Below are positions 10,272 to 11,249 of a DNA stretch of 18,500 bases, in pieces. The notes beneath the pieces were generated by a model. It saw nothing but the letters and a program-made list of their open reading frames with translations, was not told the DNA's origin and searched no databases. The stretch lies in IMG/VR virus record IMGVR_UViG_2534682324_000033. One strand, written 5' to 3'. The position numbers and the translations under genes are program-made. Numbering within the stretch: the stretch's first letter is position 1; each line of letters opens with the position of its first letter. This stretch comes from a virus (Duplodnaviria; Heunggongvirae; Uroviricota; Caudoviricetes).

Positions 10272-11249
10272 TCACCCCCTGAATCCCGGCGGTATTTCAG
10301 TGTCCGGTTCAGAAATGTGATTCACGCAACGCTGCGCGGGCGAACGCCCCAGGCGGATAACCAGTTCATCCCATTTTTCCCGGAGTTTTGCCGGACTCAT
10401 GATGTTTTTTACCCAGAACGAATCCCGCTGGAGACGCCCAAACATTTCACAAATTTGTCTGTGAGTTCTGCCATCCAGCATCCGCATTGTCCGCACGTCA
10501 TTGGCCCATGCAGTCCAGTTGGGTTCTTTCGGTCTCGTGATCTCGCCATCATCGCTGGCCGCCTGCTCGTAAAGACTCACGATTCGTCCCCAGATCCACT
10601 GTGCGCACACCAAATCTTCCTGACTTCCCCACTGGCGTTTTTTCGCACTGAACACAACCGCGTCAGGGTGTCGGGTTAAAAAATTCTGTTCAGCCGTCTG
10701 CGGGTCCGGTTGCGAAGCGTCCGGACAAGAAGATCTTTTATCTGACGGATCAGGTTTTAATACTGACGGATCGGGGTCAATCATCGCCCCCCTAATCGGC
10801 AGTTTGTTATCAACAGTTGATCCATCAAAATTTGACGGGTCAACCGTTGAGGGGGCAATATTTGACGGGTCAACTGTTAACGGGTCATTTTTTGCCGGGC
10901 TAATTTTTCTTTTCGGTTTATATGACTCACGCGCCGCCGCAGCAGCTGCTTCGAGTTTTTCCACATTAAGCCGATAGATATTGCTTACATTACGCCCACC
11001 GACCTTACGCTCTTCCTTCGTCAGCCAGCCCTCTTTCGCCAGTTCTGCAATAGCCGATTTCACTGTGGATTCACTTCTTGCACCGATCTGACGCCGGATA
11101 GTTTCAATGGCAGGCCATGACACGCCCTCGTCATTGCTGTAGTCTGCAAGACGGGCCATAACCGCCACCCTGGATAAGATCATGCCGGTGAAGGCGCACC
11201 CTTCCCAGACAAGACCATGAAGCTTGCTGCTCATAAAACCCCCGAACAC
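10272..11249 (-). CDS. phage replication initiation protein (winged-helix N-domain, O-like) containing the putative origin
   Basis: N-terminal ...ARLADYSNDEGVSWPAIETIRRQIGARSESTVKSAIAELAKEGWL...; internal peptide repeats VDPSNIAPSTVDPSNFDGSTVD are encoded by DNA iterons. Confidence 0.7.
   Translation of the reverse strand: MFGGFMSSKLHGLVWEGCAFTGMILSRVAVMARLADYSNDEGVSWPAIETIRRQIGARSESTVKSAIAELAKEGWLTKEERKVGGRNVSNIYRLNVEKLEAAAAAARESYKPKRKISPAKNDPLTVDPSNIAPSTVDPSNFDGSTVDNKLPIRGAMIDPDPSVLKPDPSDKRSSCPDASQPDPQTAEQNFLTRHPDAVVFSAKKRQWGSQEDLVCAQWIWGRIVSLYEQAASDDGEITRPKEPNWTAWANDVRTMRMLDGRTHRQICEMFGRLQRDSFWVKNIMSPAKLREKWDELVIRLGRSPAQRCVNHISEPDTEIPPGFRG
10740..10925. repeat. iteron array plus AT-rich tract (candidate replication origin inside the initiator gene)
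   Basis: TTTGACGGGTCAAC at 10831 and 10861; TCAACNGTT at 10810, 10840 and 10870 (30-bp period); TGACGGATC at about 10743 and 10768; then AT-rich TAATTTTTCTTTTCGGTTTATATGA. Confidence 0.5.

Follow-up and report, generated by a model that had tools for sequence, protein, structure and literature searches.

The stretch of DNA analysed here, hereafter the window, comprises 18,500 nt of a tailed-phage genome (Caudoviricetes; IMG/VR record IMGVR_UViG_2534682324_000033) and carries a tandem array of dyad-symmetric 15-bp units inside the gene of a phage replication initiator. We consider it probable, from sequence and comparative evidence, that the region formed by this array and its AT-rich flank, approximately 10727-10898, is the lambda-type cis-acting replication origin of the element, lying within the linker-coding DNA of its own initiator. 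Sequence matches identify the window as prophage Sp12 of Escherichia coli O157 strain Sakai: many E. coli O157:H7 chromosomes match it at 100% identity, it adjoins ynfA at the Qin position, and the 78-nt array string occurs exactly once in Sakai, within the Sp12 gene ECs_2276 ('phage replication protein'). It is textbook knowledge that gene O of lambdoid phages contains the origin, made up of iterons and an AT-rich tract (PMC7466680). An original prediction, made from the letters of the window, had proposed such iterons inside this initiator gene, and position, ubiquity, codon constraint and co-variation now lend that proposal strong comparative support.

No other part of the 18.5 kb shows so strong a periodic signal as the array. 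When all 90-nt windows were scored at lags from 6 to 60, the top autocorrelation fell at 10809-10898, with values of 0.77 at lag 30 and 0.67 at lag 15; a probe window starting at 10805 gave 0.63 at lag 15, against a maximum of 0.45 anywhere else. Tandem Repeats Finder reported 10810-10887 as 5.2 copies of period 15 and 10810-10878 as 2.3 copies of period 30 with 79% matches. The strings quoted in the original prediction are all present where it placed them, TTTGACGGGTCAAC starting at 10831 and 10861 and TCAACNGTT at 10810, 10840 and 10870, and the 30-bp periodicity it described is real, but the fundamental unit is 15 bp, or five codons; the 30-bp period arises because unit subtypes AACNGTT and AAATWTT alternate along the array. 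Each unit is built on an 11-bp dyad-symmetric core, YCAA-N3-TTGA. In gene sense, from 10883 to 10809, the five well-formed units read CCGTTAACAGTTGAC, CCGTCAAATATTGCC, CCCTCAACGGTTGAC, CCGTCAAATTTTGAT and GGATCAACTGTTGAT, and minus-strand translation of the repeats gives ...DPLTVDPSNIAPSTVDPSNFDGSTVD... A sixth unit at the promoter-proximal end, CCGGCAAAAAATGAC, keeps the phase of the array with two mismatches to the core, so that five to six direct repeats with internal symmetry are present; a further degenerate unit, GGGGCGATGATTGAC, stands alone 33 bp past the array, where other loci of the same clade (clade A, see below) have GGGTCAATGGTTGAC. The exact palindrome TCAANNNTTGA occurs four times in the 18.5 kb where 0.54 occurrences are expected, three of them at 10810, 10825 and 10840. 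Sakai Sp12 has the very same array sequence, and among near-identical E. coli genes the arrays differ by exact deletions of 15, 30 or 45 bp, giving proteins of 320, 315, 310 and 305 residues. An antisense open reading frame of 57 codons (10804-10977, plus strand) encodes mirror repeats, STVDPSKFDGSTVEG; since the units are palindromic such repeats follow, and this frame is almost certainly not a gene.

The initiator itself is predicted to consist of a winged-helix N-terminal domain (N-domain), a disordered linker and a lambda-O-like C-terminal domain (C-domain). Pfam places HTH_36 at residues 30-76 with a weak DnaD_N match (E-value, E = 0.0054), and the protein matches PHROG 391, 'replication initiation O-like', with E = 7e-115. 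In tblastn searches residues 153-300 show 34.5% identity to lambda O (nt 39119-39517; E = 5e-18) and residues 183-304 align with the C-terminus of phi80 gp15. The protein thus has the O-type C-domain of the Lambda O family, by tblastn and by PHROG 391; the N-domain matched neither lambda O nor gp15 in the tblastn searches, in which the C-terminal half alone aligned, and Pfam found no Phage_rep_O-type N-domain. The AlphaFold model is confident for the winged helix (approximately residues 1-104) and for a helical C-domain (approximately 200-298), and its per-residue confidence score (pLDDT) is below 50 over residues 108-178. Since the array provides the codons for residues 113-142 of 320, it lies in linker-coding DNA, between N- and C-domain, which is the location of a lambdoid in-gene origin. 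Foldseek retrieved only generic winged-helix regulators (MarR, PadR, ArsR and DnaD-N types) at E of about 0.01, with 2v79 at rank 38; apart from DnaD-N, these structural neighbours are dimeric DNA-binding regulators. PDB sequences searched with a profile gave no matches, and there is therefore no structural template for the mode of binding.

A scan using one genome per species yielded 80 loci, of which 74-75 gave usable genes; these represent more than 25 enterobacterial genera. In the genes that share this N-domain, a 15-bp-period array directly follows it, and 74 of the 75 homologues carry such an array. Mean autocorrelation of the linkers of 74 genes was 0.53, 0.49 and 0.44 at lags 15, 30 and 45, against a background of about 0.25. 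The motif TCAANNNYTGA, with at most one mismatch, occurs 21.6 times per kb in the linker compared with 1.33 per kb in the rest of the loci, a 16-fold difference, and at least three such matches are found in the linker of 74 of the 75 loci. The sequence of the core follows the N-domain: clade A, with N-domains at least 69% identical to that of the window, has YCAA(A/C)NNTTGA(C/G), and clade B, with N-domains 36-44% identical, has TCA(A/G)AATCTGAC. The changes between the two cores keep the dyad symmetry, and this co-variation of repeat and N-domain, with two clades and two cores, is what an in-gene origin predicts. PhiR49_1, whose genome was deposited as that of a phage, carries the clade-B version, 4.3 copies of 15 bp with the 30-bp period scoring higher.

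The constraint acts on the DNA rather than on the peptide. Position 3 of the unit, a third codon base, is A in all 37 distinct clade-A units and in 96% of those of clade B, and position 9, likewise a third base, is T in 97% and 84% respectively. The first codon of the clade-A unit encodes S, P, L or A, with base 3 constant (-CA or T-A). In the same genes, third positions at N-domain residues conserved to at least 90% average 0.58 bit, with four-fold sites at 0.04-0.5 bit and two-fold sites at about 1 bit, a 50:50 split. Codon counts made free of any motif-based selection agree: TCA or TCT make up 82% of Ser codons in the linker and 36% elsewhere, AAA 93% and 67% of Lys codons, and GAC 72% and 41% of Asp codons. 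Fixed bases beneath varying residues, next to a domain whose synonymous sites are randomised, argue for selection at the DNA level, as for iterons.

N-domain and array behave, in sequence comparisons, as a cassette that travels together. The same pair is found fused to lambda-O-like or to Phg_2220_C C-domains, and the gene that follows may be a lambda-P, DnaC-like, PerC-like or methyltransferase gene. Two near-identical E. coli initiators, P0007 and P0015, with three and two array units (L087 1501-2890 and L088 1501-2881), are followed directly by a DUF977 gene; no DnaC-like gene follows them in these loci, so the loader is dispensable or lost in some relatives. The extreme C-terminal tail of the initiator (..VNHISEPDTEIPPGFRG; window 10272-10350, about the last 25 codons) acts as a separate module. 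With megablast, Shiga toxin (Stx) phages POCJ13 and 75/02 match the final 59 nt of the gene alone, at 95%, and clade-A relatives with downstream lambda-P homologues end in ..W..GWEDVL instead of VNHISEPDTEIPPGFRG; this tail may specify the type of helicase loader.

On the promoter-distal side of the array, the segment 10727-10766 is less stable than any other 40-mer of the gene, and we propose it as the candidate DNA-unwinding region. It ranks among the least stable 2.3% or so of the 40-mers of the window and is approximately 63-66% AT. Throughout the family the 40-mer that starts in the GATC pair, described below, has a mean GC fraction (GC) of 0.30, compared with 0.52 for the genes as a whole; in 71 of 74 loci this 40-mer ranks among the lowest 5% of its gene. 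The tblastn register aligns lambda nt 39119, just past iteron 4, with window position 10778 or thereabouts, so that the AT-rich 40-mer of lambda (39122-39161, GC 0.225) corresponds to 10727-10766. The sequence AAAAGATCTTC is common to this segment and the end of the phi80 AT-rich region, and the order of iterons, AT-rich segment and C-domain coding sequence is the same in lambda and phi80. The original prediction had placed the AT-rich tract at 10885-10925 instead. That stretch is moderately AT-rich, among the least stable 6% or so of window 40-mers and fourth within the gene, but it lies on the promoter-proximal side and is not conserved: the 40-nt stretch upstream of the array averages GC 0.50 across the family, and only 3 of 74 loci have it among the lowest 5% of the gene. 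We therefore rejected this lineage-specific tract, which is probably not the unwinding element of the family. In lambda a palindrome, TCAGAGAATTCTGGCGAATCCTCTGA, which encodes SSENSGESSD (L083 560-600), lies right of the AT-rich region, and it has a phi80 counterpart (L085 1455-1490). Both correspond by homology to the PSESGG-DPSV segment of the family (CCGTCAGAATCTGGCGGGGATCCGTCAG), in position and in part also in sequence; this hints at an ancestral origin core shared by lambda, phi80 and this family.

The candidate unwinding region overlaps a second conserved element, a pair of exact GATCCGTCAG copies 21 bp apart with an A/T-rich spacer. The pair supplies two Dam sites, and a third GATC is found at 10732-10735. 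In the first copy, across 74 loci, GAT is present in 74, CCG in 70, TCA in 63 with TTA in the other 11, and GTA in 68; both GATC sites are kept in 66 of the 74. Conservation extends over both N-domain clades and includes third codon positions. The copies of TGACGGATC that had been described as related to the iterons are indeed present, starting at 10743 and 10764, but belong to this separate, clade-independent pair and are not weak or degenerate iterons. Because it does not co-vary with the N-domain, the pair is less likely to be a site for the initiator than a structural or host-factor element. The overall number of GATC sites in the window is not enriched (63 compared with 70 expected), and it is the local cluster and its invariance across species that stand out. 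In many clade-B loci a gene for a phage Dam (PF05869) or another DNA methyltransferase lies directly 3' of the initiator (L022, L024, L025, L029, L031, L033, L038, L044, L055, L058, L059, L081 and others), which suggests that methylation and origin function may be linked.

Among known origins, that of lambda, with four O-binding iterons, is one of the closest comparisons. Its annotated iterons cover O residues 117-145, the same relative position as the array; both have dyad-symmetric repeats, an AT-rich side that is promoter-distal and homologous C-domains, and in lambda transcription from pR traverses the site, as it would here from a candidate promoter. They differ in that the window N-domain is HTH_36 with no Phage_rep_O match, the iteron sequences are unrelated, the 18-bp sites of lambda are spaced 20-24 bp whereas the window has adjoining 15-bp units that keep the reading frame, and the partner in the window is DnaC-type rather than P and is accompanied by the invariant GATC pair. 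The sites annotated in phi80 gp15 (residues 122-148) also share the relative position. The phi80 AT-rich segment is about as modest, a hand-counted 40-mer having GC 0.35, and after AAAAGATCTTC a homologous acidic Ser-rich segment and C-domain follow; however, phi80 has four sites, each 15-16 bp long and spaced 20-21 bp, that read GGAA/TTCC-CGAAAACGG, an N-domain unrelated to that of the window, and a P-like partner, gp14. In replisome organisers of Gram-positive phages (SPP1 G38P/oriL and the lactococcal and streptococcal 'ori' repeats) a winged-helix DnaD-N-like domain binds repeats in its own gene. The DnaD_N and 2v79 matches given above offer weak support for a relation to these systems, whose hosts differ and whose repeats are unrelated. 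Plasmid iteron origins and P1 oriR place tandem initiator sites beside an unwinding region, and in P1 oriR and oriC clustered GATC sites tie initiation to Dam methylation. Plasmid iterons are 17-22 bp long with helical phasing of about 22 bp and are usually intergenic, with DnaA boxes. The array does not fit this type, having a period of 15 bp, a coding location and no perfect DnaA box (one-mismatch matches were at chance level); by eye, no fit to the IHF consensus was seen either. Rac was rejected as a comparator, its YdaU being a DUF1376 protein of a different initiator family.

The most serious alternative is that the initiator does bind the array, but as an autoregulatory operator, a transcriptional roadblock or a copy-control ('handcuffing') site, with the true origin elsewhere. 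Iteron-type initiators commonly autoregulate, the array is inside a transcribed gene, and the flanking AT-rich region is weak. Against this, the window contains no second motif cluster, the one additional exact match of TCAANNNTTGA, at 12892, being consistent with chance; the array occupies the position of the lambda and phi80 origins; and the AT-rich minimum beside it is conserved in nearly all loci. We regard this alternative as unlikely.

It is also conceivable that the selected feature is a nucleic-acid structure, either a hairpin in the mRNA affecting translation or stability, or a cruciform or single-stranded hairpin in the DNA. The sense RNA of 10735-10900 (minus strand) folds into a long hairpin of -52.4 kcal/mol (z = -4.8 relative to shuffles), and the arrays of 75 loci have a median z of -4.5, with 91% below -2. 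Tandem dyad-symmetric units produce such hairpin potential automatically, however, and the arms are conserved in sequence within clades (TCAA..TTGA or TCAGA.TCTGA) without free compensatory drift; moreover the commonest clade-B unit is an imperfect palindrome. Since the hairpin follows from tandem palindromes with conserved arms, a function in structure alone ranks low, and we think it very unlikely. In the reading that fares worst, the repeats are no more than a pentapeptide linker (TVDPS/SKSDA) of low complexity and prone to slippage; any selection would be for flexibility of the protein, and the DNA itself would have no function. Predicted disorder and copy number changing in exact five-codon steps agree with it, but residues drifting over conserved bases is the opposite of the synonymous drift over conserved residues that a protein-only repeat requires, third positions are nearly fixed beside saturated synonymous sites of the N-domain, selection on the peptide does not account for the dyad symmetry of the units, and the motif follows the N-domain clade, so that this reading has very little credibility left.

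Read as an origin, the region would work as follows. Leftward early transcription from a pR-like promoter would express the initiator, whose N-terminal winged helix, probably as dimers, would bind the 11-bp cores every 15 bp along five good and two degenerate units. This binding would build a nucleoprotein complex resembling the O-some, which would destabilise the adjacent promoter-distal segment with its invariant GATCCGTCAG pair, and the lambda-O-like C-domain and tail would then recruit host DnaB by way of the neighbouring DnaC-type loader. For binding, unwinding, recruitment of the loader and a role of Dam methylation we infer function from sequence. The contiguous 15-bp spacing implies either a functional repeat of 30 bp or a continuous protein filament on alternating half-sites; such half-sites, GTCAAC and GTTGAC, alternate in the array 7-8 bp apart.

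Several observations weigh against assignment as an origin. A spacing of 15 bp, about 1.4 helical turns, is atypical of iterons, and some E. coli variants are down to two or three units. The AT-rich segment is far weaker than that of lambda (GC 0.35-0.375 compared with 0.225). The units for the sequence logo were gathered with a motif allowing up to two mismatches, which inflates information content at the specified positions, and the surveyed loci are related by shared ancestry. Open-access texts yielded no paper with the motifs TCAAAATCTGAC, GATCCGTCAGT or CAAATATTGAC. Finally, after mitomycin C treatment Sp12 showed no circularisation, replication or packaging (PMC2669165); since its integrase and repressor are defective, this negative result is no test of the origin.

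The features are collected in Table 1. The loader gene, matching the PHROG 50 'DnaC-like helicase loader', has intact Walker A and B motifs, and the YdaS/Cro-like and YdaT/CII-like genes lie upstream in the same leftward operon as the initiator. A predicted transcript from the candidate pR-like promoter would traverse the array. Sp12 was listed in 2009 among the prophages with DnaC-type loaders and apparently functional replication genes (PMC2669165), so retention of the replication genes in Sakai Sp12 is already published. The claim that the replication module is apparently complete here, unlike that of K-12 Qin, holds at the level of annotation: the initiator and DnaC-type reading frames are intact, whereas the interval from dicC to flxA in Qin has just ydfX, a truncated YdaT-like gene, and the unrelated ydfW (annotation and pairwise protein comparison).

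Table 1. Coordinates of the candidate origin, its components and the surrounding genes in the window
Feature	Position	Strand	Basis or remark
Five well-formed 15-bp units (candidate iterons)	10809..10883	-	Tandem Repeats Finder, motif and autocorrelation; relatives with the same array type in place
Degenerate sixth unit	10884..10898	-	Array phase kept; two mismatches to core
Isolated degenerate unit	10776..10790	-	Counterpart at same position in other clade-A loci
GATC-pair element, GATCCGTCAG twice	10742..10772	-	Exact copies 10742-10751 and 10763-10772
Candidate DNA-unwinding region	10727..10766	.	Free energy (dG) -46.9; least stable 40-mer of gene, overlaps GATC pair
AT-rich tract of the original prediction	10885..10925	.	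GC 0.35; dG -48.7 per 40-mer; encodes KPKRKISPAKN
Replication initiator gene, ECs_2276, WP_000095669.1, 320 aa	10272..11234	-	Pfam, PHROG, tblastn, AlphaFold
DnaC-type helicase-loader gene, Sakai ECs_2275	9525..10265	-	Pfam IstB_IS21 E = 1.5e-19; PHROG 50 E = 1.2e-81
YdaT/CII-like gene	11257-11682	-	Pfam, PHROG
YdaS/Cro-like gene	11679-11981	-	Pfam, PHROG
Candidate pR-like promoter, TTGACT-18-TAAACT	12010..12039	-	Consensus match only

Despite its intact replication frames the prophage is decaying. A DUF1627 gene is frameshifted (8730-9499; L001 8731-9500), the integrase is a truncated pseudogene (17752-18434; L001 17753-18435), and some O157 strains carry an IS1203 insertion in the 9000-12500 stretch. 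A RelB / RelE-ParE toxin-antitoxin pair (12472-12943) lies directly beside the DicA-like repressor gene, and the hokD locus is found further left, at about 7057-7212. A second tandem repeat, 4.3 copies of 21 bp with consensus GAAACAAAACGAGCCAGAAAC, is located at 16445-16535 within an ExoVIII-type exonuclease gene, with an autocorrelation of 0.70 at lag 21.

The array very likely supplies the sites for the initiator in a known kind of element, the lambdoid in-gene origin, and belongs to an uncharacterised repeat family. No description of this iteron family or of the GATC-pair element was found in open-access texts, and a paper on the 'Eru' replication types of Stx phages does not discuss origins, repeats or DnaC. 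A wider reading, which we put forward only tentatively and think rather doubtful, is that of a distinct and widespread origin of enterobacterial temperate phages, in which a winged-helix N-domain and in-frame 15-bp iterons form a portable cassette, coupled to the clade-independent GATCCGTCAG pair, with initiation gated by Dam methylation or SeqA. The phage Dam gene directly downstream in many relatives is consistent with such gating. If this were true, the iterons would double as pentapeptide codons, and gain or loss of units would alter both origin strength and linker length without a frameshift.

Initiator relatives are present in most E. coli genomes and are usually annotated just as 'helix-turn-helix domain-containing protein'. 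If the origin is confirmed, it would provide both the origin and the specificity determinant for a large prophage initiator family, with 911 database relatives, as well as a sequence rule for finding origins in such prophages, namely an array of in-frame 15-bp units with a GATC pair after it. The array would also be a clear natural case of binding sites constraining the synonymous positions of a coding sequence. The general picture of lambdoid replication would remain unchanged; for E. coli O157 the finding would bear on which of its defective prophages could still fire in situ or be mobilised.

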